Below are positions 2,640 to 53,682 of a DNA stretch of 64,000 nucleotides, piece after piece. Under the pieces are notes generated by a model. That model had not been told where the DNA came from. It ran no database searches and saw only the letters and a program-made list of their open reading frames with translations. Position numbers and translations under genes: made by a program. The number at the start of each line of letters is the position of its first letter. The stretch's first letter is position 1. Source of the stretch: an uncultured Gammaproteobacteria bacterium (GTDB lineage: Bacteria; Patescibacteriota; Microgenomatia; Levybacterales; GWA1-39-11); contig CAYOTA010000002.1 of assembly GCA_964406795.1 (NCBI GenBank), positions 81,549 through 145,548 on the forward strand. The letters are read 5' to 3'.

Positions 2640-4121
2640 TTACAATCCTGCAAAGTAGTCGGTTTTGATACTGGTGGGTTTGATTCCGAGCTTATTCAGA
2701 GTCCCTTTGACCCCATGTACCATTCCACTTGATCCAGAAATATAATATTTCCTACCTTCATAATCAGTTACTTGTGTTTTTATGACATCTTCAGTTAAAT
2801 GCTGACCCTTAGATGAATCCACATATACAGCTTTAACGCCAATTGATCTTGCTTGATCTACAATATCTTTATAGGTAAATTCATCACTACTTCCACAATA
2901 GTGAATAAAGATTATATCTCGCTTTTCTCTACTATCTATTAAATACTTCAGCATACTTCTAAATGGAGTAATCCCTATTCCACCTGCTATAAACACAAGC
3001 TTTTTTGTGGTGTCTTTCGGAAGTATAAAATCTCCTTTGAGCTGCCCTGCATATATCACGTCTCCCGGCTTTAAACTAAATAGTGCATTTTTAAATGTGC
3101 TGGACGGATTATACTTTTTAACCCCTAGCTCAAGTGCCCCTTCTGTGGGAGAAGACGCAATAGTAAAGTAACGTCTTATTCCCCTAGAATCAGCCTTTGA
3201 GTGTGGTAGTGTCCATTCCATATACTGACCTGGTTTAAATTTTACCCACGTAGGTTTATCAAATATAAATGCATCAGTAGTTGGAGACAATTTTTGAATT
3301 TTTTCAAGGGTTAACTTGAGCCTCCATTTGGGGCTCACCGCAAATGCAAAAATATTACCAATTAATAATGCAAACTCCGGTGTTACGTAAAAATTAAACA
3401 CAGGAATCTGATATGTAGTTATAATTCCCACTATTGCTCCGTAAACCATCTGCATTCTCTTAGTAGATGGGGCTGTTATAGGTTCTGTTAGTATAATTGT
3501 TCCCAAGAATAGTAATGGCCAGGAAGTAAAAGCAAACTTGAGTGTCTCTAAAGGCGGTTGATTATACGTATATCCAAAAATAAGCATAACAATAAGTGCT
3601 GGGAGTAAAAATGAAAACAGCATGGTAAATTTACGGATTTTACGTACTACCAAAAAGCCTAAAACTACCATAGGCAGCAACAATGCCTCAGATCCCACCC
3701 ACCAAGATACACCTAAACCCAAAAATCCTACCACAAATGAACCCAGTGCTGCCGGATTAAATATATGTTTCCTATGATACACAATCACATATTTAGAAGC
3801 GATAGTAAGTACGCCTGCCAAAAATACTAAAAGATAGCTTTGTAAAGTATTCGAAGGGGAAAGAATAAAAAACAAAATAAGCGACGTTATAGCGCTTGAC
3901 TCTGTATTTGATGGAATTTTTAAAAATTTGGATAACACGTGATTTGTTGCAAAACAACTTATGAATAACAATACAAATGAAACAGAAAGAACGAGTGGGT
4001 CAAGGGATAAAATTTGCAGCAATGTAAGAATGAAAGACAAAATAGCAAGTACAACCAGCCCATATAGGACTAGTCTGTACATGGTGATAGAATTCAAAAG
4101 ATTATCTATTTTAGAAAACAT
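2640..4121 (-). CDS. membrane oxidoreductase: RnfD/NqrB-like multi-TM domain fused to ferredoxin-NADP-reductase-type FAD/NAD(P)H-binding domain (NqrF-like)
   Basis: N-terminal ~280 aa with ~8 hydrophobic helices ending LTEPITAPSTKRMQMVYGAIVGIITT, resembling the conserved C-terminal motif of RnfD/NqrB; C-terminal RRYFTIASSP (FAD RxY[ST]), GDFIL, LVFIAGGIGITPFRSM (NAD GxGxxP). Confidence 0.7.
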   Translation of the reverse strand: MFSKIDNLLNSITMYRLVLYGLVVLAILSFILTLLQILSLDPLVLSVSFVLLFISCFATNHVLSKFLKIPSNTESSAITSLILFFILSPSNTLQSYLLVFLAGVLTIASKYVIVYHRKHIFNPAALGSFVVGFLGLGVSWWVGSEALLLPMVVLGFLVVRKIRKFTMLFSFLLPALIVMLIFGYTYNQPPLETLKFAFTSWPLLFLGTIILTEPITAPSTKRMQMVYGAIVGIITTYQIPVFNFYVTPEFALLIGNIFAFAVSPKWRLKLTLEKIQKLSPTTDAFIFDKPTWVKFKPGQYMEWTLPHSKADSRGIRRYFTIASSPTEGALELGVKKYNPSSTFKNALFSLKPGDVIYAGQLKGDFILPKDTTKKLVFIAGGIGITPFRSMLKYLIDSREKRDIIFIHYCGSSDEFTYKDIVDQARSIGVKAVYVDSSKGQHLTEDVIKTQVTDYEGRKYYISGSSGMVHGVKGTLNKLGIKPTSIKTDYFAGL

Positions 4122-4133
4122 ACTAGTATTGTA

Positions 4134-5012
4134 TCACTGAATAAATAATTCAGCATTAAATCCCTTACTTTTTTCAAAAGTCATATTGGAGTATAAAATA
4201 AAAAATTCACATGGGTATATTGTTTTTGAAACATCGGATTGATCCAAATATAAAACGGTTGTCATGCCGTCAGCAATAAACGCTGTTTTTGCAGTTACCC
4301 AAACGGCGGAAATGTTAGTAGGAGAGGTGAGGGTTTGCGGATTAATTATATGGTGGTACTTCCCCCATTTACGTCTATTTCCTGCAGATCCGCATATACT
4401 TTCATTTAGTATTTCAGAAATTGCTATCACCTGTGTACTGTCTTGGGGATTTTCAAGACCAATTCGTGCCCCATGTAGTGAATTCGAATGATGAAGCATG
4501 TCTCCGCCAGCATTGATTAAAAATTCTGTGACACCCTCTTCCTGTAAAATAGTGCCAATGATATCAACAAGATATCCTTTTCCCCCAGCCCCAAAATCCA
4601 ATAATACAGGATTTTTTACTGTGAGAATTTGATTTTCATATACGAGTGCTTGATCTAGTAAGAGAGGGGAAACAACTTTTTTTGATTTTAATGTATAAGA
4701 AGCATCATAGCCTAGGGAAACGAGAGTATTTCCTATGAGAGGGGTAAACAGTCCATGAGTTTTGTGATAAAAATTTTTATAGATTTCAAAAAGCAAGGTA
4801 AAATCATCAGGCATTGTGTAGTTGCCTGCTTGTTGTGAAATTTTTGAAACTAGCGAGTCAGACCTAAAGCGTGAGTAATTTTTATCAAACTCCTCAATTC
4901 TATTCTTAATTATCTGAGCCAAAAAGTTTACTTTTGATGTTTCAAAAAATATATCAATTTCCCAGTGTGTTCCAATCGCCTCAAGTGAAAAAGAGCTTAA
5001 TATGTGCGACAT
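4134..5012 (-). CDS. apbE: FAD:protein FMN transferase (ApbE family)
   Basis: ApbE motifs LLDFGAGGKGYLVD and INAGGDM; length 292 aa. Confidence 0.8.
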   Translation of the reverse strand: MSHILSSFSLEAIGTHWEIDIFFETSKVNFLAQIIKNRIEEFDKNYSRFRSDSLVSKISQQAGNYTMPDDFTLLFEIYKNFYHKTHGLFTPLIGNTLVSLGYDASYTLKSKKVVSPLLLDQALVYENQILTVKNPVLLDFGAGGKGYLVDIIGTILQEEGVTEFLINAGGDMLHHSNSLHGARIGLENPQDSTQVIAISEILNESICGSAGNRRKWGKYHHIINPQTLTSPTNISAVWVTAKTAFIADGMTTVLYLDQSDVSKTIYPCEFFILYSNMTFEKSKGFNAELFIQ

Positions 5013-5014
5013 TC

Positions 5015-5503
5015 TTAGCTTTTTGCCTCAATTTTTATTTTTTCAAGCGCGTCTTGAAAACCTTTGGGAGTAAGAGACGAGCCTGAAACTTTTGTTAAAT
5101 TTACTTCATCAATGCGTTTACCTACTACCATTGGCTTATAATTTGCGATAAAGTCTGCTTGTTTTTTTTTCGTTGTTGGTCTGTTTGCTTGTGAAAAAAC
5201 TTCAACCTCGGATATTATTCCTTTTGTTAAAGTAACCGTTACGCCAATTGTCTCGGCTCCTCCAGGAGATATATATTCACCAACCTGTGTATAAATTCCA
5301 TTCTTGTATTCTGCCTGAATTGTTTGTGCTTCGGTGTTAAGCTGATTAGCACTTGGAGTTTGATTAACGATAGGTACAATGTTATTAGATTCAATCGTCT
5401 CAAGCCCTATAACGGAAATAATGATAAATAAAACTATGATAACAGCAATTATTGACGTTTTAGCGATGTTGTTGTATGGTCTTTTTGTGTTTTGTTCAAT
5501 CAT
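5015..5503 (-). CDS. membrane-anchored FMN-binding domain protein (NqrC/RnfG-like, FMN_bind)
   Basis: N-terminal TM anchor (IIAVIIVLFIIISVIGL), C-terminal FMN_bind-like domain with candidate flavinylation motif KVSGSSLT; strong SD GGAGGTGA 7 nt upstream; 2-nt gap to apbE. Confidence 0.65.
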   Translation of the reverse strand: MIEQNTKRPYNNIAKTSIIAVIIVLFIIISVIGLETIESNNIVPIVNQTPSANQLNTEAQTIQAEYKNGIYTQVGEYISPGGAETIGVTVTLTKGIISEVEVFSQANRPTTKKKQADFIANYKPMVVGKRIDEVNLTKVSGSSLTPKGFQDALEKIKIEAKS

Positions 5504-21623: not shown

Positions 21624-22112
21624 TTACCTTACCGAAGAAATGATGAACGCGTGGATATGAACTATCGTGTCATTATAAGTAATTGACTCAACACCAGTAG
21701 TCACTTCTGTTTCCGGATAACTTCCTGTAATTACATATGAATAGTGCCACTTTCCGTCGGCTGCAGGAGTACACTCTTCCAATAATCGAGTTTTGTCTGC
21801 TAATTCAGCTATCTTTTTTATCAAATACGCACTTACCTCTTTAGCAGCAATTCCTAATGATTCGAGATGTTCCACAGCAGGTGTTCCGCCTGCATACAGC
21901 CTAGTATATTTTTCTGTGCCTATCTGAATTAATTCCTGCCCTCCACCATTATGGTGATCCACAAACCACTCATCATGATACATTTTATCTTTACCGAGCT
22001 CTACATGACTTGATTTTCCTTCAAATCCTCCTCTATTTACATCTAAAACTTTTCCACCTGCATACCCGGCAAGAAGTCCCTTAGTTAACCCATCTTTAAT
22101 CTTTTTGTTCAT
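21624..22112 (-). CDS. hypothetical protein
   Basis: 162 aa from ATG 22112 (MNKKIKDG...), abutting the upstream stop; no known motifs. Confidence 0.4.
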   Translation of the reverse strand: MNKKIKDGLTKGLLAGYAGGKVLDVNRGGFEGKSSHVELGKDKMYHDEWFVDHHNGGGQELIQIGTEKYTRLYAGGTPAVEHLESLGIAAKEVSAYLIKKIAELADKTRLLEECTPAADGKWHYSYVITGSYPETEVTTGVESITYNDTIVHIHAFIISSVR

Positions 22113-22113
22113 A

Positions 22114-22500
22114 TTATTTCCGTAAAATTTTTTCCATTGTTTTTCCTTTTGCGAGTTCATCAATTAATTTATCTAGGTATCTGATTTCTTGCATGAGTGA
22201 CTCGCTAATCTCTTCTACTCTCATGCCGCAGATAACTCCGGTGATTAATTTTCGATTTGGATTCATGTGAGGAGCTTTTGCAAAAAACGTTTCAAAATCT
22301 GTTTCTTTTTTGAGCTCCACTTTCAAACCTGCATTATCATATCCGGTTAGCCAGTAAATAATTTCATCGACTTCTTGCTTAGTACGACCCTTTTTCCCTA
22401 CTTTCATAATATATAAAGAATACACGCTTGCAAAACTTATTTTGTAAGTCCGGTTATTCTTCACACTATCTATTTTACCATGGATGATAAACGAAATCAT
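22114..22500 (-). CDS. DUF2200-like protein
   Basis: 128 aa; [20 protein letters not shown]...[19 protein letters not shown]...[15 protein letters not shown] resembles the DUF2200 family (from memory). Confidence 0.4.
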
Positions 22501-22582
22501 TAAAAATCTCTTAATTTAGCCTTATTTTCTTTCTTGTGTTTTATAAATATTTGATTTAATATGAAAATATTGTAGAGATTGC

Positions 22583-25500
22583 ATGAAATTATTTAAAAAG
22601 GTATTAACTGCGTTTTGCTTAAGCATCCTATGGATTTGTCTCTTTTCTATTTTCCCCACAAAATCATTTGCTCTTCCCGGAAGCGTTCTTGAAATGGGTT
22701 TTTCCGAAGGCAACGGAACAACGGTTTCCGACTCTTCAGGTAGCAATAATAATGGGACTATTTCCGGAGCCGTTTGGGAATCAAATGGAAAATTTGGATC
22801 CGCTTTGTCGTTTGATGGGTTAAATGACCTGGTCACCATAGCTGACGCAAACAGCTTAGACTTAACAAACAATATAACTCTGGAAGCATGGGTAAAACCC
22901 ACTACAACCTCAAGCAATTACAGAACAATTATCATGAAGGAAAGACCCTCAAACGCTACATACACTCTTTACAGCAACAGTAATAATAACCGTCCTATGG
23001 GTGAGCATTCAAAGACCAGCGGAGCTGTTGTAGATATAAAAGGAACCACTCAACTTCCTGCAAATACTTGGTCTCACATTGCAGTGACTTACAATGGTGC
23101 ACAATTTAAATTTTTTCTAAATGGTGTGCAAAAAGCATCAAAAAATACAACTGGAGCTATGTTTGTTTCCAATGGGGCGCTCAGGATTGGGGGAAACTCT
23201 ATATGGTCAGATGAGTATTTCAGTGGACTGATTGACGAAGTAAGAATATATAACCGCGCTCTTACTGCAGCCGAGATTACAACAGACATGAATACTCCGA
23301 TTACACAAGATACTACAAATCCTACCATATCCATTACCTCCCCTACACAGGGCGCCACAATTTCAGGAACTCAGATCATTACAGCAAACGCACAAGACAA
23401 TATTTCTGTTGCAGGTGTTCAGTTTAAAGTAGACGGACAAAATGTAGGAACAGAAGACACCTCAGCTCCCTATGCGTTTTCTTGGAATACAACTTCTGCT
23501 ACCAATGCTGACCACATAATCACAGCTGTTGCAAGAGATTCATCACAAAATACTACTACTTCATCTCCCATAACTATTACAGTTTCCAATCCCCCTACTT
23601 TAACTATTAGTTCTCCTTCCGAAAACCAAAATATAGTGGGAAATAACATAACAATTACTTATACAAAATCAGGAGATTTAACTTATGCAAATCATGCTCA
23701 TTTTGTGCTTGATGGTGGAGCAACCAAGATGGACTTAGATTTTGATGGAACATATACTATTTCAAATGTTGCGCCTGGAAATCACACGCTTGTTGGAATG
23801 ATAGCCAGATCAGATCACAGTGAGATAGAATTGTCAGAAGATACAGTCAGCTTTACAACCACTGTTCCTGACACTACAAATCCAGTTGTTGATATAATTT
23901 CTCCAGAAGAAGGATCAATAGTATCAGGAACAACAACCCTAACAGCAGTTGCAACAGACAACATAGCTATATCAGGAGTACAATTTAAAGTTAACAATCA
24001 AAATGTAGGAGCACAAGATACTACATTTCCTTATCAAGTATCATGGAATTCCACAACGGTTTCCAATGGAACATATACCTTAACTGCAATAGCAACAGAT
24101 ACTTCTCAAAACGCTACATCTTCAGCGCAAATTTCTATAACAGTCCAAAATGCAGACCCAAGAGCCCAAATTGGTCAGTGGAGCGGCATCATGAATTGGC
24201 CGCTGGTAGCAGTACATTCTACTTTTTTAAATACTGGTAAAATTCTCGTGTGGGATGCATGGGAATATAATACAACAACCGCAAAATTGTGGGACTACCA
24301 AACCAACACATTTTCGCAAGTTCCTAATAGTTCCCAACTTTTTTGTGCGGCACATACAACACTTGCTGATGGTCGTGTACTTGTAACGGGGGGACACAAT
24401 GGGGGAGAAATTGGTATTAAAGACACAAACATTTTTTCTCCTGAAACGGGAAACTGGAATCGTCCACCTGACATGCAGTATGCACGATGGTACCCTTCAA
24501 ATGTAACGTTAGGAGATGGTCGAGTTGTAGTATTAAGTGGACAAATAACCGGAGGGACATTTGCCGATATACCAGAACTATACAACCCAATTACTAATAC
24601 ATGGTCCACTCTGAATGTGAATACTTCCAGTATGCGTGATAGTGAATACCCGCTTACCTTCCTACTTCCGAATGGAAAAATATATACAATTGCGGCAACT
24701 CCTGGAAACTCATATACCTTAGATGTTGCAACTCCACAGTGGACTAATGTGGGTACAATTCCTTCAAAGCTTGGTTCTGCTGCAATGTATCGTCCTGGTA
24801 AGATCCTTTACACAGGAGGAGGAGACATTAAAGATTCAGGACAGGCTTCAAGAAATCAGGCATCAGTAATTGATATGACAGCGGCAACTCCTACATGGAG
24901 TACTGTTGCATCAATGGCGTACCCTAGATACCAGCATAATCTCACTATTCTTGCAGATGGAACTGTCATGGCAATCGGCGGCGCCAGTATTGTTTCACAA
25001 ACTGCCACAAGTGGCACTTTGCCAACAGAAATTTGGGATCCAACTACACAATTATGGTCGACAACTGCTTCAATTGCCCAATCAAGAAACTATCACTCAA
25101 CCGCAATGCTCCTTCCAGATGGCAGAGTCTTATCAGCCGGAGGAGGAAGACTTGGGGGAGCGCCAGACAGATTTACAGCACAAATTTATTCACCCCCTTA
25201 TCTTTTCAAAGGCACAAGGCCAGTTATCAATACAGCACCCACCAACACTGGCTATGGTGAGCAGATGAGTCTTTTAACATCTGATACCACCAATATTTCT
25301 AAAGTGGCATTTGTACCCCTGGCATCCAACACGCACACACTTGACATGAATCAACGATACGTAGAACTCAACTTTACAAAAACAACAAATCAAATAACTG
25401 TTGATAGTCCCACTGATTTTAACATTGCTCCACCTGGTTACTATATGGTTTTTATTATCAATAATCTCGGAGTGCCGTCTGAAGCAAAAATAGTAAAACT

Positions 25501-26488
25501 CAACACATTAAATGACACTACATTTCCCACTGCTTCTATTACCTCTCCAACCCAAAACGCAACCGTTGTTGGTAGTATCACTATCACTGCTCAGGCAGCT
25601 GACAACATTGCAGTAGCACAAACACAATTCACGCTCGATGGTAACAATATAGGCTCTCCCGACACATCAGTTCCTTATGAATTTACATGGGATACAACTA
25701 CCTCATCAAATGGCATTCACTTGCTTTCTGTCAAAGCAACAGACACCTTTGGGAACACAACCACTTCAGACGACGTCTCTGTTACTGTTGATAATCCAGT
25801 AGACACCACAGCACCAATCATAACGAATGTCTTGTCAAGCAATATAAGCGGGACAACAGCAACAATTAGCTGGACAACGAATGAGAATGCAGATACACAG
25901 GTTGAATACGGTACTACAACTGCCTATGGATCAAATACCACCCTCAATCCTGTTCTTTCCACAACTCATAGTCAAAGTTTATCCGGACTAACCAGCAACA
26001 CACAGTATCAATACAGAGTAAAAAGTAAAGACGCCAATGGCAATCTTACAACCTCTGATAACATGACATTTACAACAACAGGCAACCTCGCCACCATTAA
26101 TTTTAATGATCACCCCCAAACAGATGTATCGTTGAACGGGATATTTCCAACAGGTCTTATTAACTGGGGTACAAATCAGTGGTTTATTTCAGGTCCTTGG
26201 GGCCAATTTACTACAAAGAGTATTAGCTTTAACAGCGCTTCCCAAACAACTGCCACATTTAATTTTGTGACCCCAAAAATCTTGTCACAGCTTGATATGT
26301 ATAATGGAGGAGCAAATGGCACTACCACAATTGCTTGTACTGGAAACACAACAAAGTCTGTATCCATAAATGCTTCCCAAATCTTAACAAATATAAGCAC
26401 CGGGTTTACAACACCTTGCACTACTGTTACTTTCACCTCATCTAACGGATGGAACACAAACTATGATAATTTTGTAGTAACTGACTAA
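22583..26488 (+). CDS. giant secreted multidomain protein: LamG lectin-like + Ig-like (Big) repeats + galactose-oxidase-like kelch propeller with DUF1929 + Ig-like + fibronectin type III
   Basis: Signal peptide; LamG_3 motif LIDEVRIYNRALTAAEI; repeated ~90-aa Ig-like units (ISITSPTQGATISG..., DIISPEEGSIVSG..., SITSPTQNATVVG...); copper-radical-oxidase motifs LFCAAHTTLADGRVLVTGG, ARWYPSNVTLGDGRVVV, SRNYHSTAMLLPDGRVLSAGGG; FN3 (ATISWTTNENADTQVEYG). Confidence 0.8.
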   Translation: MKLFKKVLTAFCLSILWICLFSIFPTKSFALPGSVLEMGFSEGNGTTVSDSSGSNNNGTISGAVWESNGKFGSALSFDGLNDLVTIADANSLDLTNNITLEAWVKPTTTSSNYRTIIMKERPSNATYTLYSNSNNNRPMGEHSKTSGAVVDIKGTTQLPANTWSHIAVTYNGAQFKFFLNGVQKASKNTTGAMFVSNGALRIGGNSIWSDEYFSGLIDEVRIYNRALTAAEITTDMNTPITQDTTNPTISITSPTQGATISGTQIITANAQDNISVAGVQFKVDGQNVGTEDTSAPYAFSWNTTSATNADHIITAVARDSSQNTTTSSPITITVSNPPTLTISSPSENQNIVGNNITITYTKSGDLTYANHAHFVLDGGATKMDLDFDGTYTISNVAPGNHTLVGMIARSDHSEIELSEDTVSFTTTVPDTTNPVVDIISPEEGSIVSGTTTLTAVATDNIAISGVQFKVNNQNVGAQDTTFPYQVSWNSTTVSNGTYTLTAIATDTSQNATSSAQISITVQNADPRAQIGQWSGIMNWPLVAVHSTFLNTGKILVWDAWEYNTTTAKLWDYQTNTFSQVPNSSQLFCAAHTTLADGRVLVTGGHNGGEIGIKDTNIFSPETGNWNRPPDMQYARWYPSNVTLGDGRVVVLSGQITGGTFADIPELYNPITNTWSTLNVNTSSMRDSEYPLTFLLPNGKIYTIAATPGNSYTLDVATPQWTNVGTIPSKLGSAAMYRPGKILYTGGGDIKDSGQASRNQASVIDMTAATPTWSTVASMAYPRYQHNLTILADGTVMAIGGASIVSQTATSGTLPTEIWDPTTQLWSTTASIAQSRNYHSTAMLLPDGRVLSAGGGRLGGAPDRFTAQIYSPPYLFKGTRPVINTAPTNTGYGEQMSLLTSDTTNISKVAFVPLASNTHTLDMNQRYVELNFTKTTNQITVDSPTDFNIAPPGYYMVFIINNLGVPSEAKIVKLNTLNDTTFPTASITSPTQNATVVGSITITAQAADNIAVAQTQFTLDGNNIGSPDTSVPYEFTWDTTTSSNGIHLLSVKATDTFGNTTTSDDVSVTVDNPVDTTAPIITNVLSSNISGTTATISWTTNENADTQVEYGTTTAYGSNTTLNPVLSTTHSQSLSGLTSNTQYQYRVKSKDANGNLTTSDNMTFTTTGNLATINFNDHPQTDVSLNGIFPTGLINWGTNQWFISGPWGQFTTKSISFNSASQTTATFNFVTPKILSQLDMYNGGANGTTTIACTGNTTKSVSINASQILTNISTGFTTPCTTVTFTSSNGWNTNYDNFVVTD

Positions 26489-26496
26489 GCCTCTAC

Positions 26497-27060
26497 ATGA
26501 AACGTTTTTTATTTACCTTATTTCTTTCTACAATTATTGTTCTTTTGAGCGTTGTGAACGTGCAGGCTCATGAATCTTTTCACTGGATGCAACAAATAAA
26601 AAAAGATAGGATGCTTGTTGTGTTTTATAATCAAGAAGAATTTCAAGCTAACATAGAACAGTCTTTTCAAGTAAGGCTGGTGGAACTTTCAAATGGAAAA
26701 TCAATTCCATTCAAATACGCAGATGTATCATTTGAAACTAATGGGAAAAGAGCCTATTCATTCAAAAAAAATGCTGATGAAAATAATGATGTAGCATTTT
26801 CCTATGCATTTCCCAAAAAAGGAAAGTATGTGATGACTGTAAAACTTTTTGACAACTCAAAGCTTGTAACTGAGGCAAAATTCCCCATATTAGTGGGATC
26901 AGGTATAAACGCAGACTGGCCAATCATACTCAAAAACTATTGGGCAGAATTTGCGCTTGTAGGAGGGTTACTGATTTTTGTGTCATATCTTGCGGGCAGA
27001 AAAAATATACTTGCTCATACTAAAAAGTTTCTAAAACGAAAAAACTCTCAATCTTCTTAA
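26497..27060 (+). CDS. secreted protein with C-terminal membrane anchor (unknown function)
   Basis: Signal peptide ending VNVQA|HESFHW, ~130-aa domain, C-terminal TM (FALVGGLLIFVSYLAG) and basic tail; 8 nt after the giant gene. Confidence 0.5.
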   Translation: MKRFLFTLFLSTIIVLLSVVNVQAHESFHWMQQIKKDRMLVVFYNQEEFQANIEQSFQVRLVELSNGKSIPFKYADVSFETNGKRAYSFKKNADENNDVAFSYAFPKKGKYVMTVKLFDNSKLVTEAKFPILVGSGINADWPIILKNYWAEFALVGGLLIFVSYLAGRKNILAHTKKFLKRKNSQSS

Positions 27061-27222
27061 TTTTAGGATTGTAACAGTTAAGTATTTGCTATAATTACCT
27101 AGTGAGCAATCAACCGGCATATAGAGAAACTGAGGATTCTGTGGATGATTTTATTGCAAGTCTTGGCAGAAGAACTTCGATTAAAACGGACAAAAACCAA
27201 GACACATAACTTCGAGATTTTG

Positions 27223-27294
27223 TGAGCGACCAGGGTCTCGAACCCTGAACCTATTCCTTAAGAGGGAATTGCTCTACCATTGAGCTAGTCGCCC
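27223..27294 (-). tRNA. tRNA-Lys (anticodon CTT)
   Basis: Acceptor GGGCGAC/GTCGCTC (one G-U), D-arm GCTC-AATGGTA-GAGC, anticodon loop CTCTTAA, T-loop TTCGAGA, discriminator A; 72 nt. Confidence 0.75.
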
Positions 27295-27419
27295 TTCGTA
27301 ATTTTGCCTTGCAAAAATTTCTCAGGAGCACGTTTTCCTTTCAGTCAAATGTGTCCCGTATTCTTTTACCGAATATATTTTATCATGAAGCTGGTATTTT
27401 TGCAGTATTGAGGGGAAAC

Positions 27420-27776: not shown

Positions 27777-27849
27777 TGCGCCTGAAGGGACTCGAACCCC
27801 CAACCGCCTCGTCCGAAGCGAGGTGCTCTATCCATTAAGCTACAGGCGC
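27777..27849 (-). tRNA. tRNA-Arg (anticodon TCG)
   Basis: Acceptor GCGCCTG/CAGGCGC, D-arm GCTT-AATGGATA-GAGC, anticodon loop CTTCGGA, T-loop TTCGAGT, discriminator A; 73 nt. Confidence 0.8.
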
Positions 27850-28018: not shown

Positions 28019-28996
28019 ATGGCATTGATAGATGATGTAACAATTAGAATTAAAGCTGGAAATGGTGGTCAGGGCGGGCAATCCTTTTCATCTGGTGTTG
28101 CTCCTGACGGAGGAAACGGCGGAGATGGTGGAGATATTTACCTGGAAGGAAGTACAAATGTAGCAGATCTTTCAGAGTTTAGATTTAAAAAGGATATTCA
28201 TGCCGCAGACGGCACAAATGGACTAAATAAAAAACTCCATGGAAAAAAAGGCACAAGTATAACAATTCTCCTTCCTTTAGGAACTAAAGTTACTGACACA
28301 AAGAATCAAAAATCACTAGAAATTACCGAAAAAGGAAAAGCTATTAGAGTTGCTGAAGGAGGATGGGGAAAAATAGGAAATTATGACGAGCTGAGGGCCA
28401 TTAGAAGCAGAAGGACAGTAAGCGATGTGGAGCAAAAAGGAATAGAACGAGAACTACATCTAGTGTTAAGTCTGATAGCAGATATAGGACTCATAGGGCT
28501 CCCAAATGCCGGCAAAAGCTCATTACTCGCGGAACTAACTAGAGCTACACCTAAAATAGGAAACTACCCGTTTACAACTCTGGAGCCTAATTTAGGGATT
28601 ATTAAAACAGAGGGTGAGGATAAAACTACAGCACTTGCCATTGCTGACATTCCGGGACTAGTAGAAGGTGCGTCAACCGGAAAGGGACTGGGGATTCAGT
28701 TTTTAAAACATATTCAGAAAACAAAAATTTTATTTCACTGTATAGACGCAACTCAAGCAGACTTACTGCAAGTGTATACAACGGTTAGGCAAGAATTTAA
28801 GGCATATGACGTAAACTTACTCAACAAGCAAGAAATAATTTTGCTTACAAAAATAGACTTACTGGAAAAAGGCCAACTGGAAGAAAAAATTCAGGAACTT
28901 AAAAAAACCGGCAAGGAAATAATCCCACTCTCAATTTATGACAAAAAATGTATTGAATACCTCAAAAAATTGATATCAAACCTCCAAAAAGATTAA
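28019..28996 (+). CDS. obg: GTPase Obg/CgtA
   Basis: Gly-rich Obg-fold N-terminus (GNGGQGGQSF...GGNGGDGGDIY) followed by G1 GLIGLPNAGKSSLL and G3 DIPGLVEGA. Confidence 0.85.
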   Translation: MALIDDVTIRIKAGNGGQGGQSFSSGVAPDGGNGGDGGDIYLEGSTNVADLSEFRFKKDIHAADGTNGLNKKLHGKKGTSITILLPLGTKVTDTKNQKSLEITEKGKAIRVAEGGWGKIGNYDELRAIRSRRTVSDVEQKGIERELHLVLSLIADIGLIGLPNAGKSSLLAELTRATPKIGNYPFTTLEPNLGIIKTEGEDKTTALAIADIPGLVEGASTGKGLGIQFLKHIQKTKILFHCIDATQADLLQVYTTVRQEFKAYDVNLLNKQEIILLTKIDLLEKGQLEEKIQELKKTGKEIIPLSIYDKKCIEYLKKLISNLQKD

Positions 28997-30992: not shown

Positions 30993-32276
30993 CTACGCAA
31001 GTGCATTTTTAGAACGTAACTTTCTATGATACGTAATAGCAAACCTGTGTGCCTCATCCCTTATGCGTCTGACTATGTTTATTGCTGGAGATGACAATGG
31101 GACACGCACTTCTGTAAACTTCAAACCCCTTACCTCTTTTCTGGGAATTACCAGTGTTTCAAATTTTTTGGCAATCCCTATAACCGGAATTGAGACGCCG
31201 TTATGAGCCAAAACTTGAAGAACTGATGAAACCTGACCCTTTCCACCATCTACTATAAAAAGGCTCGGAAATTCCCATTCAGGATGCTTAAGACGCCTTC
31301 CCATCATCTCCTGGTGCATAGCAAAATCATTAGGAGTTTTTGTTTTTCTGATTTTAAACTTTCTATATTCTGATTTTTCAGCTGACCCATTGATCAACAC
31401 TGTCATAGAACCAGTGGCGTTCGTTCCCTGAAAATTAGAAATATCAAAACACTCTATCCTTTTGAGGTTTGTTAAAACTACACCATTGGCAGCCAGTAAA
31501 TCAAATAACGCTTGGTTTTCTGATTCTTCCCGTATGGACTGCGTTTTAGGTTGATTTATATACACAAACGGATCATATGTTTCCTGCGTAATTTTCTCAA
31601 TTGAGTCAATTTGCTTTTGGACAATTCCCGCTTTTTCAAATTCTTCTTGTTTTGAAAATATGTTGCGTTCTGACTCTAAATTTTTAATAACTTGTTTTGT
31701 ACTGCCTTTCAAAAACCGCTTAAGATTTGAAATATTTTTTTTGTATATGTCAGCATTTTCAGGTACTGCTTGGACACATGGGCATAATCCCAGGTGAAAG
31801 TATAAACATTTGCGTTTAGGATGAGTCTTGACAGACTCATAAGGAAAAATTTTTCGAAGTAACTTTAACACAACCTTACTGGAGCCGGCATGAGGATATG
31901 GTCCAAAATAGTCAGCCTTTTTATTTGTCATTTTACGAACTAAACCTACATAGGGGATTTCAGAATTTGTTACAGCAATATACGGATATGACTTGTCATC
32001 AATCATTTTAATATTAAAATAGGGAAGGTGTTGGTGTATTAACTCTGCCTCTAACAAAAATGCCTCAATTTCAGAGTTCACCACTATGTGCACAACTTTT
32101 TTTATTTTAGGAATTAGTAATGAGGTTTTTTCGTCATGAGCTTGCTTTTGAAAATAAGAGGAAACGCGCTTTTTGAGATTTTTTGCTTTCCCAACATAAA
32201 GAATATTACCTTTTTCGTCTAAAAATTGGTAAACCCCTGGTTTTGATGGCAATGATGAATATAATGATTGATCCAA
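30993..32276 (-). CDS. uvrC: excinuclease ABC subunit C, short form (GIY-YIG + RNase H-like endonuclease domains, no C-terminal HhH)
   Basis: GIY-YIG PGVYQFLDEKGNILYVGKAKNLKKRVSSY; endonuclease domain FDISNFQG...IVDGGKGQVSSV; 427 aa versus ~600 for canonical UvrC. Confidence 0.75.
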   Translation of the reverse strand: MDQSLYSSLPSKPGVYQFLDEKGNILYVGKAKNLKKRVSSYFQKQAHDEKTSLLIPKIKKVVHIVVNSEIEAFLLEAELIHQHLPYFNIKMIDDKSYPYIAVTNSEIPYVGLVRKMTNKKADYFGPYPHAGSSKVVLKLLRKIFPYESVKTHPKRKCLYFHLGLCPCVQAVPENADIYKKNISNLKRFLKGSTKQVIKNLESERNIFSKQEEFEKAGIVQKQIDSIEKITQETYDPFVYINQPKTQSIREESENQALFDLLAANGVVLTNLKRIECFDISNFQGTNATGSMTVLINGSAEKSEYRKFKIRKTKTPNDFAMHQEMMGRRLKHPEWEFPSLFIVDGGKGQVSSVLQVLAHNGVSIPVIGIAKKFETLVIPRKEVRGLKFTEVRVPLSSPAINIVRRIRDEAHRFAITYHRKLRSKNALA

Positions 32277-39862: not shown

Positions 39863-40660
39863 AAGGTTTGACCTTGAGTATGCTTAACGAAGGTCAAACC
39901 TTCACGACGAACAACTGTGAATAAACCTTACTACAATGCCGTCAAAAAATATAATAAAAACTTATTATAAAGGCGCCTACTTTCATGTCTACAATCGTGG
40001 TGTTGAAAAGCGTTCAATCTTCATAGATGAACAAGACTGTCAGGTGTTTTTAAGATATATCAAACTATACTTATCTCCTTTGGAATTTGTAAACAAAATG
40101 GGAGAGTCAGAACCAAAAATCCGAAGATTTTTTAAATTAAATCTGAAAAATGATGTAGAGCTTTTGTGTTTTGCACTTATGCCTAATCATTTTCATATGC
40201 TGTTAAAGAATAAAAGCGAAAGGGGTATTCCAATACTAATGCAACGCGTTATGACTGCTTACACAATGTATTTTAACAAAAAATATAACAGAATTGGTGC
40301 CTTATTCCAAAATGCATACAAAGCATCCCCTGTCTTACATGACTCATATCTGCTTCATCTCACCAGATACATTCACAATAATTCATCACGAATTCAACCA
40401 AAGCAAATTAATTTCATGAACTATTCTTCATATCCTTATTATCTAGGAACACTTGCATCAGAATGGCTAAATACAACTTTCATATTAGATTACTTCAAAA
40501 ATACAATCAAAGCTACAAATACGATCGAAGCATATAAAAGCTTTGTTGAAATGGACATCACAGACTCTATAAGTGTGCTTAATTTAAATAACTTAATACT
40601 AGAAAATGACCTATGTATTTAAGGTTTGACCTTCAATGAAGCAGAATAAGGTCAAACCTT
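39863..40660. mobile_element. IS200/IS605-like or REP-associated Y1 transposase (RAYT) unit: hairpin - tnpA - hairpin
   Basis: HuH transposase ORF bounded by two hairpins with identical 13-bp arms AAGGTTTGACCTT/AAGGTCAAACCTT (39863-39902 and 40621-40660), each with a different 14-nt loop. Confidence 0.6.
39936..40622 (+). CDS. IS200-like / REP-associated tyrosine (Y1, HuH) transposase
   Basis: HuH motif LCFALMPNHFHMLL; later Tyr-containing helix (LHLTRYIHNN); Transposase_17-like fold; 228 aa, longer than classical 140-aa TnpA. Confidence 0.65.
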   Translation: MPSKNIIKTYYKGAYFHVYNRGVEKRSIFIDEQDCQVFLRYIKLYLSPLEFVNKMGESEPKIRRFFKLNLKNDVELLCFALMPNHFHMLLKNKSERGIPILMQRVMTAYTMYFNKKYNRIGALFQNAYKASPVLHDSYLLHLTRYIHNNSSRIQPKQINFMNYSSYPYYLGTLASEWLNTTFILDYFKNTIKATNTIEAYKSFVEMDITDSISVLNLNNLILENDLCI

Positions 40661-48833: not shown

Positions 48834-49517
48834 CTAGTGTAACTCTTGTATAAGTACCCTGTCAAGCTCACGCCGTAGTGGCAAAACCAAACCGCCTGAT
48901 TTCATAGACACCTCTATGTCATATAAATGTAAGTAAAGTTTTTTTAAATCTTCTGCTTTCCAACGGCTTGCTTGATCCTGAAGTTTGGATAACTGCCACG
49001 GACTTATTTTAATAACCTCTTCGGATTGAATACTTAGCGATACATACAACAGTTGTCTTATGCGTTTAACTAGTGAATAAAATAATTGCTCAGCTTCAAT
49101 TCCTTCCATTTTTGATAATACATCCAGTTCTTGTTTGTAGTTTTTAGGTGTAATATTATCCAAAAAAGTAAAAAATAATTTTGGAAGCATGTATAGATAA
49201 ACCTGTGCCTCTCTAAACTTAGAAAGAGCCAGTTTTGAAAGCTCCGTGTTGTGCCACAAAACAACCACAACCTGCTTATCTTTTTTTTCAATTGAGGCAT
49301 GCAAAGCTTCCATATCAACCTTCTTAAGCTTTAAGAATTTTTCCACAACTACGCATTTTTCAACAACAAACAAATCTTGTGAGGTAAATGCCGACTCTAT
49401 ATCGCGTCCGCTTACCTTTTCACCATTTAAAACCACCGTATTTTTAAGGCTTTTTAAAAGCTCTTGTACTTTGTTTTGTGAAGACACTGTATCGTCTCCG
49501 TGTATTACGTGTAACAT
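48834..49517 (-). CDS. DNA polymerase III delta subunit-like (HolA-like)
   Basis: N-terminal LHVIHGDD, clamp-loader delta-like helical C-terminus (...LYLHLYDIEVSMKSG); 227 aa, shorter than typical HolA. Confidence 0.4.
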   Translation of the reverse strand: MLHVIHGDDTVSSQNKVQELLKSLKNTVVLNGEKVSGRDIESAFTSQDLFVVEKCVVVEKFLKLKKVDMEALHASIEKKDKQVVVVLWHNTELSKLALSKFREAQVYLYMLPKLFFTFLDNITPKNYKQELDVLSKMEGIEAEQLFYSLVKRIRQLLYVSLSIQSEEVIKISPWQLSKLQDQASRWKAEDLKKLYLHLYDIEVSMKSGGLVLPLRRELDRVLIQELH

Positions 49518-49978
49518 ATTATTTTTTTTGATTTCAGTTCGTTATAGAACCTATCTACCTCGCGTTGATATCCCCTGTGCCCATTTCGGTGCGGAAGCAG
49601 ACTTCCGGAAAAGTTTTTTGGTATATGAAGCAGTTCGTGAATAATTACTTTTGACTGCTCCTCATGAGGCAGCCTGTCATAATATTTAGAAATAACTTCT
49701 ATAACGTATGCCGGCTCTATGTCCAACACCGTTTGAAATATTTTAGGAAACGCCCAAGTTCTGGCATATGCCCGCGCTTTAGATCCGTGTGTCCTAAAAC
49801 AAAAAATCCGGTGTTTTGGAATGTGTGTAAATTCTAGGTCAACAATCATAGTTCTTACACGCTGTGTTAATTCGTAGTCTGTGTGCCACTCAAGCGTTTT
49901 TGGAGTTTTACTTTTAGTAGTACGTTTCTTTGCTACTCTTTTAACTTTCACAGTGGGTTTAAAAATACGGTCTAACAT
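49505..49978 (-). CDS. HExxH zinc-metallopeptidase-like protein (SprT/DUF45-like)
   Basis: VIIHELLHIPKNFSGSLLPH contains HExxH and a downstream His; basic N-terminus. Confidence 0.4.
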   Translation of the reverse strand: MLDRIFKPTVKVKRVAKKRTTKSKTPKTLEWHTDYELTQRVRTMIVDLEFTHIPKHRIFCFRTHGSKARAYARTWAFPKIFQTVLDIEPAYVIEVISKYYDRLPHEEQSKVIIHELLHIPKNFSGSLLPHRNGHRGYQREVDRFYNELKSKKIICYT

Positions 49979-51633: not shown

Positions 51634-52122
51634 ATGCCAAAAATTACAACGGCTGAAAAGCTGGGAAAATTAAAAAGAATTCCTTTTACAAAACAAGGGC
51701 ATGCCGATTTGATTAAAAACCTAGAAGAACTTCAAGAGGCACGACCTGCTGCTGTTAAAGAACTCGCCCGCGCACGAGAGCTAGGTGATTTATCCGAGAA
51801 CGGACTCTATACTGCAGCCAAATCCCGCCTTGTGTCTATAGACAATCAAATTTTTAGAGCAGAAATGACACTAAAACTAGCTGATATTATTGAAGAATCT
51901 GAAGATTCAGGAATTCATATAGGCTCCAGCGTGAAAGTTAAAACGGAGGGCAATGAGTTTACTTATCACGTAGTTGGTGACACTGAAGCAAATCCCAAGG
52001 AATACAAAATAACCCAGCACTCCCCCATAGGACGAGCACTTTTAGGTAAAGTTAAAGGAAATAAAGTAACAGTAACGCTGCCCGCTGGAGACAAGATATT
52101 TGAAATTATAGAAGTATCATAA
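51634..52122 (+). CDS. greA: transcription elongation factor GreA
   Basis: N-terminal coiled coil with ARARELGDLSENGLYTAAK, C-terminal FKBP-like domain HSPIGRALLGKVKGNKVTVTLPAG; 162 aa. Confidence 0.8.
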   Translation: MPKITTAEKLGKLKRIPFTKQGHADLIKNLEELQEARPAAVKELARARELGDLSENGLYTAAKSRLVSIDNQIFRAEMTLKLADIIEESEDSGIHIGSSVKVKTEGNEFTYHVVGDTEANPKEYKITQHSPIGRALLGKVKGNKVTVTLPAGDKIFEIIEVS

Positions 52123-53682
52123 CTTCCAGAAAAACGGCTCATTTTTTTTATTTATAATTTTCCATCCCCATGTCCCTATATCTAGGTAATCTATCCGTTC
52201 CTTATGTACAGTATTTTCAAAACCATTCAAGTGTTTATAAGTGTAGTCACGATCAAAATTTAGCTTTGAAACAGGATTAATTTTATACAAAAAGATTCGG
52301 GGATTTTTGCTCGATCTAATAACACTACTAGAATATTTTTCAAATAAAGGTTTTACTTTAGAATTTCCTATTTTTCCTAAAGACAATACATGCAAATGAT
52401 TTCCGTCATACGAATAATACGGATTAAACAGCGCTTGAGAATCTATATAGACGTTCCTTCCTTGACTCAAGGCTAAATCAATCTTATATTCTATAAATTC
52501 CAGGCTTTGTCCGGGTTCATTTATAAAATATTTCTCACCACTAAATACTACCTGAGGGCGAATTAAATTTGAACTTATTAGCACTGAATTTTGAGGTATA
52601 GTACTGTATATCTTTACGAGTTCTTGCTGAACGGGTGCAGATCTATTAGTAAGAGCTAACGGGATAAACATAATAATTAGCTGGAGTACAATAAGAATAT
52701 AAAATATTCGAGGCACCACGGACACTAACAACGCAAGTGGAAAAGACGCAATCAGGGCAACACGACCAAATAGTCCTATATGCCAATATTGCGTGACAAA
52801 CACTGTAGGTAAAAACCATAGTATCAAAATCAGTAATTTCGTTTTATCCTTTTTAAATAAAAGAATCGACCCAATTACAGCCGACAAAACAACAAGCGTA
52901 GAATTATTTCTTAAAACTATTATTCCAAAATTCCTGATAAATCTTCCTAAATCATATAAAAGATTTCCGGTACCATAAATGTCTGCTCCATGCATAAACA
53001 AAAGCCGCATACTTTCAAAAGGCGTATTTCCAACCAACATCAAAAGAATAACTAAGAATATTACTCCAAGAGTACAGCCCAAAAAAAGAGATAAAATCAC
53101 TTTTTTTAAGACCTTAAATTTATTCTTTTTTTCAAGGATTACGGGCGTCAACAACACTGGGAGCCATAAAATAACTTGCGTGTGAGTAAATACAGAATAA
53201 CCTAACGATAGTATTCCAATACACAACCACTTCTTACTTTTTTCTTTAATATATCTAAGCAAGCTATAAAATGACAACAGATAAAAGAATATATATGTGG
53301 TGTCTGTTAGTACATTTGTGCTTGCTAAAAAGAACGCGGGAAAAAGTGTGACAACTATTAAAGATTTTATGGCTGAAGTTTTATTAAACAATAACTTTAC
53401 GATCTTATAGAAAACGAAAAGTGCCAATGCACCAAATATACTTGATACTACTTCTGCAGAATATACAACACCAAGAAATGGGAAAAGTCGAGTTAGTATC
53501 CATGTTGGCAAAATATAACCTGGGTGAATTGGTTCATGCGCCAGCGTTAACGCTTGGAGTAAATTTGGATTTTGAATCAAACGGACATATTCAGGCGAAT
53601 CAAAATAAATGGGAAGCGGGGATAAAAAGAATACGCGCTGTAAAAATAATATCAGTATCAAGCAAACATTTCCCACACTCAC
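52117..53682 (-). CDS. GT-C fold membrane glycosyltransferase (GT39/ArnT/PMT-like)
   Basis: ~11 TM helices, N-terminal first-loop acidic motif YFDSPEY, long periplasmic C-terminal domain; 521 aa. Confidence 0.45.
   Translation of the reverse strand: MSVGNVCLILILFLQRVFFLSPLPIYFDSPEYVRLIQNPNLLQALTLAHEPIHPGYILPTWILTRLFPFLGVVYSAEVVSSIFGALALFVFYKIVKLLFNKTSAIKSLIVVTLFPAFFLASTNVLTDTTYIFFYLLSFYSLLRYIKEKSKKWLCIGILSLGYSVFTHTQVILWLPVLLTPVILEKKNKFKVLKKVILSLFLGCTLGVIFLVILLMLVGNTPFESMRLLFMHGADIYGTGNLLYDLGRFIRNFGIIVLRNNSTLVVLSAVIGSILLFKKDKTKLLILILWFLPTVFVTQYWHIGLFGRVALIASFPLALLVSVVPRIFYILIVLQLIIMFIPLALTNRSAPVQQELVKIYSTIPQNSVLISSNLIRPQVVFSGEKYFINEPGQSLEFIEYKIDLALSQGRNVYIDSQALFNPYYSYDGNHLHVLSLGKIGNSKVKPLFEKYSSSVIRSSKNPRIFLYKINPVSKLNFDRDYTYKHLNGFENTVHKERIDYLDIGTWGWKIINKKNEPFFWKL

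Follow-up and report, generated by a model that had tools for sequence, protein, structure and literature searches.

Organization of the Locus and Domain Architecture

The stretch of DNA analysed here (64 kb, hereafter the window) contains two closely spaced genes on its forward strand, the first encoding a large secreted protein with a copper-radical oxidase (CRO) domain and the second a small protein that we refer to as the partner (table 1). An earlier note on this DNA had described the first ORF as a 1301-aa product with a signal peptide and LamG, Ig-like, and FN3 modules, and the ORF and the modules were recovered in the ORF list and Pfam searches, although the fn3 match at aa 1081–1163 is weak (20.2 bits, under the cut-off of 25). 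In an ortholog fragment (L089), fn3/Pur_ac_phosph_N scored at the equivalent position, and Pur_ac_phosph_N appears in the precomputed Pfam list for a full-length ortholog that is 71% identical (L001). Big_7 matched four stretches (E 6.8e-46), and self-comparison resolved these into three 92-aa repeats with a mutual identity of 54% and a weaker fourth Ig-like unit (aa 338–430). The catalytic region matched Glyoxal_oxid_N (PF07250) at aa 569–706 (63.7 bits, cut-off 37.5) and GO-like_E_set (PF09118, the former DUF1929) at aa 879–972 (84 bits, cut-off 25). The C-terminal domain had been estimated at approximately 200 aa but spans only about 131 aa (1171–1301); it matched neither Pfam models nor PDB sequences and is 65–71% conserved in three orthologs (L001, L085, and L089).

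The predicted signal peptide lacks a twin-arginine motif, and a motif scan of the protein detected neither an LPXTG sequence nor a membrane helix beyond the hydrophobic core of the signal peptide. C588 is the sole cysteine within the first ~1,250 mature residues; the only other mature cysteines, C1252 and C1279, are both in the C-terminal domain.

Table 1. Features of the oxidase gene and the partner gene (positions in the window)
Feature	Position	Strand	Basis
Gene for the 1301-aa secreted multidomain CRO protein	22583..26488	+	ORF list; stop codon included; ATG start
Predicted Sec signal peptide, aa 1–30 (MKLFKK..., hydrophobic core, SFA/LP cleavage)	22583..22672	+	Read from sequence by eye
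LamG/concanavalin-A-like lectin domain, aa 79–232	22817..23278	+	Pfam Laminin_G_3, E 1.9e-35, 122.6 bits
Ig-like stalk: Big_7 repeat 1 (aa 243–334), weaker Ig-like unit (338–430), Big_7 repeat 2 (433–524)	23309..24154	+	Pfam Big_7, self-BLAST
Seven-bladed kelch propeller of the CRO, aa 530–878	24170..25216	+	Pfam Glyoxal_oxid_N and Kelch, BLASTP vs 1GOF, AF2, Foldseek
C588 codon (propeller)	24344-24346	+	Codon checked
W636-Y637 codons (propeller)	24488-24493	+	Codons checked
Y837-H838 codons (propeller)	25091-25096	+	Codons checked
GO-like E-set domain (DUF1929), aa 879–973	25217..25501	+	Pfam PF09118, 84 bits
H918 codon (E-set domain)	25334-25336	+	
Big_7 repeat 3 (aa 981–1072) and FN3 domain (aa 1081–1163)	25523..26071	+	Pfam, self-comparison
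Orphan C-terminal domain, aa 1171–1301, 131 aa	26093..26485	+	No Pfam match
Partner gene, 187 aa	26497..27060	+	ORF list; AF2; family statistics; adjacency to LamG/CRO genes
Partner signal peptide, aa 1–24	26497-26568	+	Cleavage predicted by eye
Partner predicted first mature residue, His25	26569-26571	+	
Partner beta-sandwich, aa 29–133	26581-26895	+	AF2 pLDDT >90
Partner transmembrane helix, ~aa 148–167, then basic cytoplasmic tail	26938-26997	+	

Copper Site and Predicted Fold of the Oxidase

BLASTP alignment to the verified sequence of galactose oxidase (GO, PDB 1GOF) pairs C588 with GO C228, Y637 with GO Y272, and Y837/H838 with GO Y495/H496, which bears out exactly the correspondence of three motifs to the GO active site that the earlier note had drawn. 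The second His ligand, which that note had implied without giving its location, is placed by the same alignment at H918 of the E-set domain (ASNTHTLDMNQR), equivalent to GO H581. Failure of the ligands to superimpose on GO had been named as grounds for dropping the claim; all five align. Among 56 relatives, the Cys, the Tyr-His pair, and the second His (H918) are each conserved in 56/56 sequences and the Trp-Tyr-Pro motif is conserved in 55. The ligands are likewise kept in L001, in Levybacteria (L016), and in L092, and orthologs that share 71% and 44% identity retain them. With E values of 2.6e-51 to 1e-43 for the galactose oxidases in the PDB and of 6e-48 for GlxA, the sequence similarity is far beyond chance.

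The AF2 model of the CRO domain (pLDDT 95.6) superposes in Foldseek on solved CROs with TM scores of 0.89–0.92 and rmsd values of 2.4–3.8 Å; the structures matched (9G43, 4UNM, 1GOF, and 5C92) comprise galactose oxidases, GlxA, and CgrAlcOx. The structural features of a CRO, namely a seven-bladed kelch propeller with an E-set domain, two Tyr and two His copper ligands, and the cofactor Cys, are all present, and the assignment of the propeller to the GO/GlxA type holds with every first-shell residue in place. CROs also catalyse the O2-dependent, two-electron oxidation of alcohols or aldehydes and release H2O2, a reaction predicted for the protein studied here. Judged from its sequence, the ORF product looks like the carrier of an intact copper enzyme domain of the galactose-oxidase type.

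The Partner Gene and Its Association with LamG-Containing Oxidases

The oxidase stop codon (26486–26488) and the partner ATG (26497) are separated by 8 nt, as the earlier note had stated, and no terminator-like site was found on the coding strand across 22100–27400, hence none between both genes. When the window is compared with L001, the two-gene cassette is the only part in common and the flanks differ. In all 11 independent contigs examined, which range from 33% to 72% GC, the partner gene lies directly after a gene for a LamG/CRO multidomain protein, with the junction varying from an overlap of at most 11 nt to a gap of at most 8 nt. The upstream CRO domain was present wherever the available sequence reached at least ~1 kb upstream of the partner: it is whole in the window, L001, L083, L084, and L092, the last providing an intact 1620-aa LamG/CRO example, and its E-set end is present in L089 and L091. 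Partner family members down to ~18% identity also directly follow LamG/CRO genes. The suggestion that the downstream gene encodes a partner is thus supported by genes that travel together while their flanks differ and by a pairing that is kept in distant family members. A search of 80 other CRO loci, Levybacteria included, found no partner gene, which indicates that the partner is not required by CROs generally.

The partner had been described as a secreted protein. It does have a signal peptide and a predicted mature N-terminal His, but the C-terminal transmembrane helix and basic tail show that it is not simply secreted. The motif AHESFHW is invariant across five orthologs, and in a family of 38 members with an overall identity of only ~20–30%, His occupies the +1 position predicted by eye in 31 and Ala the −1 position in 35. 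Seven of the 38 members lack the +1 His; every member whose N-terminus is intact and whose CRO/LamG context was verified has it. The conserved N-terminal His lends indirect support to the metal-handling role that the earlier note had suggested for this protein. The family has no other conserved His, with position 29 being His in only 9/38. None of the 38 members matched a Pfam model, and a profile search with the family against PDB sequences gave no match. Foldseek returned only generic Ig-like sandwiches for the partner model, with the copper proteins CrdA and PmoD scoring no better than an alpha2-macroglobulin domain. By these searches, the partner belongs to an orphan family with no detectable sequence relation to any copper-binding family.

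Distribution of the Oxidase Family and the Host

The CRO domain family yielded more than 7,000 matches in many phyla, mostly from uncultured genomes, and LamG/Big_7/fn3 decoration is common to thousands of these relatives. The oxidase is therefore unremarkable within the very large, almost entirely uncharacterised bacterial branch of the galactose-oxidase family and adds little alone. This, together with an intact LamG-CRO in a Candidatus Levybacteria genome (L016), does not support the view of the earlier note that the enzyme is unusual for such a cell. Among named CPR lineages, at least the Levybacteria accordingly have intact CROs on large lectin-bearing surface proteins, and the organism studied here probably does too. 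Because formation of the cofactor needs copper and O2, such CPR cells would meet oxygen at least sometimes, which bears on the usual view of CPR bacteria as strict fermenters. Among the scanned ORFs of the 64 kb, none was recognised as a gene for respiration, ROS defence, or copper handling, copper transport included, which says little about the CPR-type, anaerobic host presumed in the earlier note.

Proposed Function and Alternative Explanations

We propose that the first gene product is a Sec-exported, adhesin-like protein in which LamG and Ig-like/FN3 spacers would display a mononuclear copper-radical oxidase with an AA5-like fold, belonging to a bacterial clade that has the Trp-Tyr motif of GlxA. 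Once exported, the propeller would bind copper and, with O2, self-process its Cys588-Tyr637 thioether cofactor; with O2 as electron acceptor and H2O2 as product, the mature enzyme would go on to oxidise primary alcohol or aldehyde groups of its substrate, probably a glycan bound by the lectin domain. The second gene product would be a membrane-anchored extracytoplasmic beta-sandwich with a predicted conserved N-terminal His, acting as a dedicated accessory of the LamG-CRO subgroup. Its most likely role would be that of picking up Cu(II) at the membrane surface and passing copper to the newly exported apo-oxidase. A second role may be to hold the oxidase, which has no anchor of its own, at the cell. 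The analysis establishes the domain layout, the complete ligand set, the fold, and the recurrent gene pair; catalysis, the class of substrate, copper binding by the partner, and docking are inferred. This explanation as a whole, with the two genes as one operon-like module and the oxidase and partner in these roles, is one that we favour with moderate confidence.

To our knowledge, GlxA, with Sco and ECuC, is so far the one case in which copper supply to an exported bacterial CRO has been studied, and the partner would offer a concrete, cheaply testable candidate route. As a tentative generalization, the partner family may provide a subgroup of secreted LamG-CROs with a metallochaperone of their own, with a docking subunit, or with both (or even with a co-enzyme that uses H2O2); the pairing is kept across contigs of 33–72% GC. 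If the host is a CPR bacterium, the module might then provide an ultra-small, presumed fermentative cell with self-contained O2- and copper-dependent oxidation of glycans on its own or a host surface.

The oxidase reading could be right and the partner could still be a mere membrane anchor, docking scaffold, or other non-metal accessory with an incidental N-terminal His. The oxidase protein has no LPXTG and no membrane helix beyond its signal peptide, the partner supplies a transmembrane helix and basic tail on a generic Ig-like sandwich, its constant companion is a LamG-containing multidomain protein, and seven of 38 members do without the His. However, pure anchoring would not explain why 82% of the members of a family with only ~20–30% identity keep a His exactly where the signal peptide is predicted to be cleaved, or why the His is present wherever the CRO/LamG context was verified and the N-terminus is intact, and we regard this explanation as rather unlikely. 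Another role that would make sense of an N-terminal His on an Ig-like sandwich, and of a strictly conserved vicinity, is that of a small histidine-brace copper enzyme or peroxygenase, which would use the H2O2 made by the CRO on a surface or host glycan in the manner of AA5-LPMO or AA5-peroxidase pairs. Such tandem oxidative systems have precedents in GlxA, which works with LpmP (PMC9040799), and in a fungal pair of an AA5_2 enzyme and a peroxidase (PMC9770985). Yet the family has no second conserved His, and in Foldseek the partner matches LPMO-containing chains weakly, without exceeding its matches to generic domains. The partner sandwich has only ~105 residues, whereas the catalytic domains of bacterial AA10 LPMOs have roughly 170 aa or more. 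Such a tandem is highly improbable in our judgement.

Least probable of the explanations considered is a pure adhesin whose kelch propeller has no catalytic activity and serves only for binding. The LamG, Big_7, and FN3 context is adhesin-like, neither copper nor ROS genes turned up around it among the scanned ORFs of the window, and O2 chemistry would be pointless if the host were a strict anaerobe. Against this, the 56 relatives show all five ligands and the stacking Trp to be invariant or almost invariant, the two orthologs sharing 71% and 44% identity retain the ligands, and the cofactor Cys is the sole Cys of the catalytic part.

Comparison with Known Copper Enzymes and Copper Proteins

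The fungal galactose 6-oxidase of Fusarium graminearum (1GOF; CAZy AA5_2) is 29% identical across the whole catalytic region, and this enzyme and the galactose oxidase of Pseudarthrobacter siccitolerans (9G43/9G8H) superpose on the predicted model with a TM score of 0.91 and rmsd values of 2.4–2.5 Å. Both GO and the protein studied here have a carbohydrate-binding-type domain in the chain, which in GO is an N-terminal CBM32; the oxidase here lacks a CBM32/F5-8 type C domain and has LamG instead. The second-shell pair Trp290/Arg330 has been described as key to galactose activity in the AA5 literature (PMC11267884). The position of Trp290 is occupied here by Ile655 and that of Arg330 by Arg685; the latter position lies in a gapped loop and is filled by H, D, N, R, or A across the clade. 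Because Trp290 is replaced and Arg330 has no conserved counterpart among these relatives, galactose specificity appears unlikely from the sequence, and the protein falls outside the galactose 6-oxidases sensu stricto (AA5_2 GalOx) as defined by this pair.

GlxA (SCO2837), a membrane-associated radical copper oxidase from Streptomyces (PDB 4UNM), is likewise bacterial and extracytoplasmic, has the same five first-shell residues and the same propeller and E-set fold (TM 0.91), and shares the Trp-Tyr motif (W288-Y289 in GlxA, W636-Y637 here) that replaces GO Trp290. In contrast to GlxA, which has an inserted domain of ~120 residues above the active site, the oxidase here has no insert: the PDB alignment is broken into aa 527–606 and 611–972 and skips GlxA residues ~110–232. 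GlxA has an N-terminal anchor, whereas the signal peptide here looks cleavable and the chain carries additional LamG, Big_7, FN3, and C-terminal domains. The GlxA equivalog model (NCBIfam NF052501) scored 238.9 bits in two separate stretches against a cut-off of 800, and assignment as a GlxA equivalog was rejected. GlxA is paired with cslA, a cellulose-synthase-like gene, and no cslA/cslZ/GT2-like gene was detected among the scanned ORFs of the window. A PMT_2 glycosyltransferase, unrelated to cslA, is encoded at 52117–53682. The proposal that the protein acts as GlxA does in Streptomyces is not supported, given the sub-threshold equivalog score, the missing insert, and the lack of a cslA-like gene among those ORFs. 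Copper loading of GlxA relies on membrane-tethered accessory proteins (PMC11611005; PMC4736821), and its maturation needs membrane-tethered copper chaperones under copper scarcity (PMC4736821); the accessory protein here is unrelated to the Sco or ECuC of that system.

For the partner, no match to the YcnI/DUF1775 or CopC models (PF07987/PF04234) was obtained at E values up to 0.1 with any of the 38 members, and neither protein ranked among the first 50 PDB structures that Foldseek returned for it. Metal chelation by an N-terminal His does not depend on the fold (PMC12537917). [quoted passage not shown] The likeness of the partner to YcnI is thus one of analogy, not of membership.

A predicted copper-radical oxidase with an intact ligand set

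The secreted 1301-aa protein that an earlier note had described was found in our ORF list as a single frame, and its propeller aligns with galactose oxidase (GO) of Fusarium across the entire catalytic region (29% identity, e value 3e-50, in a BLASTP analysis of aa 525–975). The reference was the mature Fusarium sequence, which is identical to PDB 1GOF at 639 of 639 residues and in which C228, Y272, W290, Y495, H496, and H581 were confirmed at their canonical positions. By this alignment the three motifs that the note had assigned to the Cys, the cross-linked Tyr, and the axial Tyr/His are correct, and the second His, which it had not located, lies in the E-set domain (see table); misaligned ligands, which would speak against a copper site, were clearly not seen. 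The position of the stacking Trp290 of GO is occupied by Ile655, and W636 immediately precedes the cofactor Tyr, like the W288-Y289 pair of the Streptomyces copper-radical oxidase (CRO) GlxA (PMC11611005).

In an alignment of the oxidase with 55 relatives at 42–54% identity, C588, Y837, H838, and H918 are invariant among the 56 sequences, and W636-Y637-P638 is present in all but one. Within the mature protein, the first ~1,250 residues contain no cysteine besides C588. Residues 525–975 were modeled with AlphaFold2 (mean pLDDT 95.6, pTM 0.93), and in Foldseek this model superposes on every solved CRO, including Pseudarthrobacter galactose oxidase 9G43 (TM 0.91, rmsd 2.4 Å), GlxA 4UNM (TM 0.91–0.92), 1GOF (TM 0.91), CgrAlcOx 5C92 (TM 0.90), and the F. 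graminearum glyoxal oxidase 9N3U (TM 0.88); ordinary kelch domains reach a TM of just ~0.46.

Coordinates of features of the oxidase, its partner, and their surroundings (nucleotide positions refer to the window unless a locus is named)
Feature	Position	Details
Oxidase gene	22583..26488 (+)	1301 aa
LamG (Laminin_G_3)	aa 79–232	Pfam, e value 1.9e-35
Big_7		Pfam, four stretches
Big_7 repeats	aa 243–334, 433–524, 981–1072	self-comparison, three repeats of 92 aa, mutual identity 54%
Further Ig-like unit	aa 338–430	self-comparison, weaker
Glyoxal_oxid_N	aa 569–706	Pfam, 63.7 bits vs cut-off 37.5, plus several Kelch models
GO-like_E_set (formerly DUF1929)	aa 879–972	Pfam, 84 bits
fn3	aa 1081–1163	Pfam, weak match
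Equivalent of GO C228	C588	BLASTP, codon checked
Equivalent of GO Y272	Y637	BLASTP, codon checked
Equivalent of GO Y495/H496	Y837/H838	BLASTP, codons checked
Equivalent of GO H581	H918	E-set domain (ASNTHTLDMNQR), BLASTP, codon checked
Orphan C-terminal domain	26093–26485	two cysteines
Orphan C-terminal domain, relatives	L085:3–455, L089:3–1067
Partner gene	26497..27060 (+)	187 aa
Partner signal peptide		ends VQA, predicted mature N-terminus HESFHW
Partner beta-sandwich	aa 29–133	eight strands, AF2 pLDDT above 90
Partner transmembrane helix	~aa 148–167	followed by a Lys/Arg-rich tail
Convergent large gene after partner	L001 8567–11353 (-)	928 aa with DUF2341, Laminin_G_3, LysM, CarboxypepD_reg
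Convergent large gene after partner	L085 1018–3690 (-)
Convergent large gene after partner	L089 1633–2424 (-)
tRNA genes, at this position in the window instead of a convergent gene	27223–27294, 27777–27849
LamG/CRO genes split into several frames	L083 4100–8000, L084 3700–7900
NqrB/RnfD-like membrane domain fused to a ferredoxin-NADP-reductase-type FAD/NAD module	2640–4121 (-)	493 aa
ApbE flavin transferase	4134–5012 (-)
ORF	5015–5503 (-)	162 aa, no Pfam or NCBIfam match
Obg	28019–28996	325 aa
UvrC	30993–32276	427 aa
DNA polymerase III delta	48834–49517	227 aa
IS200/Y1-transposase-like ORF	39936–40622
"Putative phage metallopeptidase" ORF	49505–49978
Ankyrin-repeat protein	56380–57126	248 aa

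The protein begins with a Sec-signal-like N-terminus (MKLFKK, a hydrophobic core, and SFA|LP); the core is its only membrane-helix-like segment, and its sequence has no LPXTG. The C-terminal domain, for which ~200 aa had been claimed, measures 131 residues (1171–1301) and has no match in Pfam or among the sequences of the PDB. This orphan domain is 65–71% conserved among the low-GC orthologs, and higher-GC relatives have a LamG domain at its position, adjoining the partner gene.

Nearest classes and breadth of the family

The oxidase is not very unusual but a new member of a known, very large family. More than 7,374 relatives of the catalytic region are present in the database at an e value below 1e-10, many of them likewise decorated with Laminin_G_3, Big_7, and fn3 domains, and scanning a single genome for each species yielded at least 588 CRO loci. 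The best 80 of these are distributed among many phyla including Chloroflexota, Actinomycetota, Acidobacteriota, Gemmatimonadota, and Myxococcota, and one lies in the genome of a named CPR bacterium, Candidatus Levybacteria RIFCSPHIGHO2_01_FULL_38_26, whose CRO of ~1,020 aa is composed of a signal peptide, LamG, Big_7, CRO, and LamG and retains all six site residues. A full-length ortholog of 1304 aa with 71% identity, the same architecture, and retained ligands is encoded on a 201-kb metagenomic contig of 40% GC (L001). Our literature search found no paper pairing galactose oxidase with the Candidate Phyla Radiation; papers naming galactose oxidase and Patescibacteria are, judged by title and abstract, gut- or oral-microbiome studies, none of which concerns a CRO in these bacteria.

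Two specific assignments were rejected. The NCBIfam model excludes a GlxA equivalog (239 bits vs a cut-off of 800); GlxA has an inserted domain that the oxidase lacks, and no cslA-like gene was detected among the window ORFs scanned. A strict galactose oxidase is made unlikely by the absence of the Trp290/Arg330 pair, as judged from the GO alignment and the 56 relatives. Because this pair is described as key to galactose activity (PMC11267884), galactose cannot be presumed to be the substrate.

A conserved partner gene

The downstream ORF begins 8 nt past the oxidase stop, as had been claimed, and our scan for terminator-like sites on the coding strand found none between the two genes; this promoter and terminator scan performed no better than shuffled sequence. 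The two-gene cassette is the sole segment common to the window and L001, whose flanks are unrelated. We then surveyed every partner-family member with an obtainable contig, which gave 11 independent contexts of 33–72% GC. In all of them the start of the partner gene either overlaps the end of a large gene on the same strand by at most 11 nt or trails it by at most 8 nt, so that the proposed partnership is real and conserved. The upstream gene ends in the orphan domain in the low-GC clade (window, L001, L085, and L089) and in Laminin_G_3 in L083, L084, L086, L087, L088, L091/L092, and L093. A CRO domain was seen in every context with at least ~1 kb of upstream sequence, either complete (window, L001, L083, L084, and L092) or as its E-set end (L089 and L091). 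At L092 the upstream ORF is intact and encodes 1620 aa with five Big_7 stretches, fn3/Pur_ac_phosph_N, a CRO propeller that retains C, W-Y, Y-H, and H, an E-set, and a C-terminal LamG; the partner, 178 aa beginning SLA|HETIF, follows after 3 nt. The L083 and L084 contigs are frameshifted, and other L084 genes are fragmented too; faulty assembly is a likelier cause here than pseudogenes.

A general linkage of CRO and partner was rejected: none of the best 80 of at least 588 other CRO loci has a partner gene within ~4 kb, which indicates that the partner is specific to a subset of LamG-CROs and not a general requirement of CROs.

An exhaustive HMMER search found only 49 cluster representatives of the partner family, most of them 140–200 aa with the same layout. 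The segment AHESFHW.Q..KDRMLVVFY is invariant in five close orthologs, and their signal peptides are variable. Among 38 aligned members, 35 have Ala as the predicted -1 residue and 31 have His at +1, where the other seven carry D (3), N (2), G (1), or M (1); conservation is also good at R60, D98, Y111, F129, and P130. These 38 members gave just sub-threshold Ig-like noise against Pfam, the family has no NCBIfam match, and its profile found no relative among PDB sequences. Foldseek matched the model to generic Ig-like sandwiches only, among them the copper proteins CrdA (TM 0.66) and PmoD, whose scores do not exceed that of an alpha2-macroglobulin MG domain. Against JGI metagenomes the close-ortholog alignment gave zero matches, and a four-sequence sub-alignment gave three loci. 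Apparent fusions of the partner in very long multi-repeat proteins were rejected, as the matches cover only a generic motif at ~aa 95–139.

Host setting

The window has a GC content of 37% and encodes repair and regulation proteins (UvrA, UvrB, UvrC, LexA, Pol IV, Obg, and GreA), enzymes of central metabolism (G6PD, 6PGD, PPDK, PGM, and PurH), a type IV pilin-like protein, and single scattered tRNA genes, a content that is compatible with a small-genome bacterium without proving one. Bacterial Obg, UvrC, and DNA polymerase III delta are usually longer than the versions encoded here; such short housekeeping proteins are compatible with a reduced genome and diagnostic of no taxon. The three genes at 2640–5503 (-) seem to make up a compact flavin redox module at the membrane. 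Among the scanned window ORFs, with a minimum length of 100 aa, no copper transporter or chaperone, respiratory oxidase, SOD, or catalase was detected. The region of the oxidase gene (24001–26000) has a GC content of 42.3% vs ~37% window-wide and a negative GC skew; this could reflect a Thr/Gly/Ala-rich composition or foreign origin. Both biogenesis of the CRO cofactor and turnover depend on O2, so that conservation of an intact site speaks for a cell that encounters oxygen.

A proposed two-gene surface module

The best-supported reading is that oxidase and partner form a two-gene surface module. Exported apo-oxidase would pick up Cu outside the cytoplasm, because its signal is of the Sec type and a twin-arginine motif is absent; the Cys588-Tyr637 cofactor would then form with O2, and oxidation of an alcohol or aldehyde group would yield H2O2. 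The lectin domain and the long Ig/FN3 stalk suggest a polymeric or cell-surface glycan as substrate. A rival reading holds that the propeller is a catalytically dead kelch scaffold; the invariant ligands and the superposition on solved CROs support an intact CRO.

The partner may capture Cu(II) and deliver it to the oxidase, tether it, or both. It could instead be purely an anchor, as its transmembrane helix and basic tail would allow, or a co-enzyme consuming H2O2, the proposed product of its neighbor; the N-terminal His, conserved in most of the family, is among the features for which we favor the Cu(II)/tethering role over both. Of the leads given here, this N-terminal-His family holds the most interest and lends itself best to testing. 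Three further considerations likewise point to Cu(II) capture or tethering: an N-terminal His is a metal chelator irrespective of fold (PMC12537917), the topology of the partner resembles that of YcnI (PMC8424229), and GlxA is served by membrane-tethered chaperones (PMC4736821).
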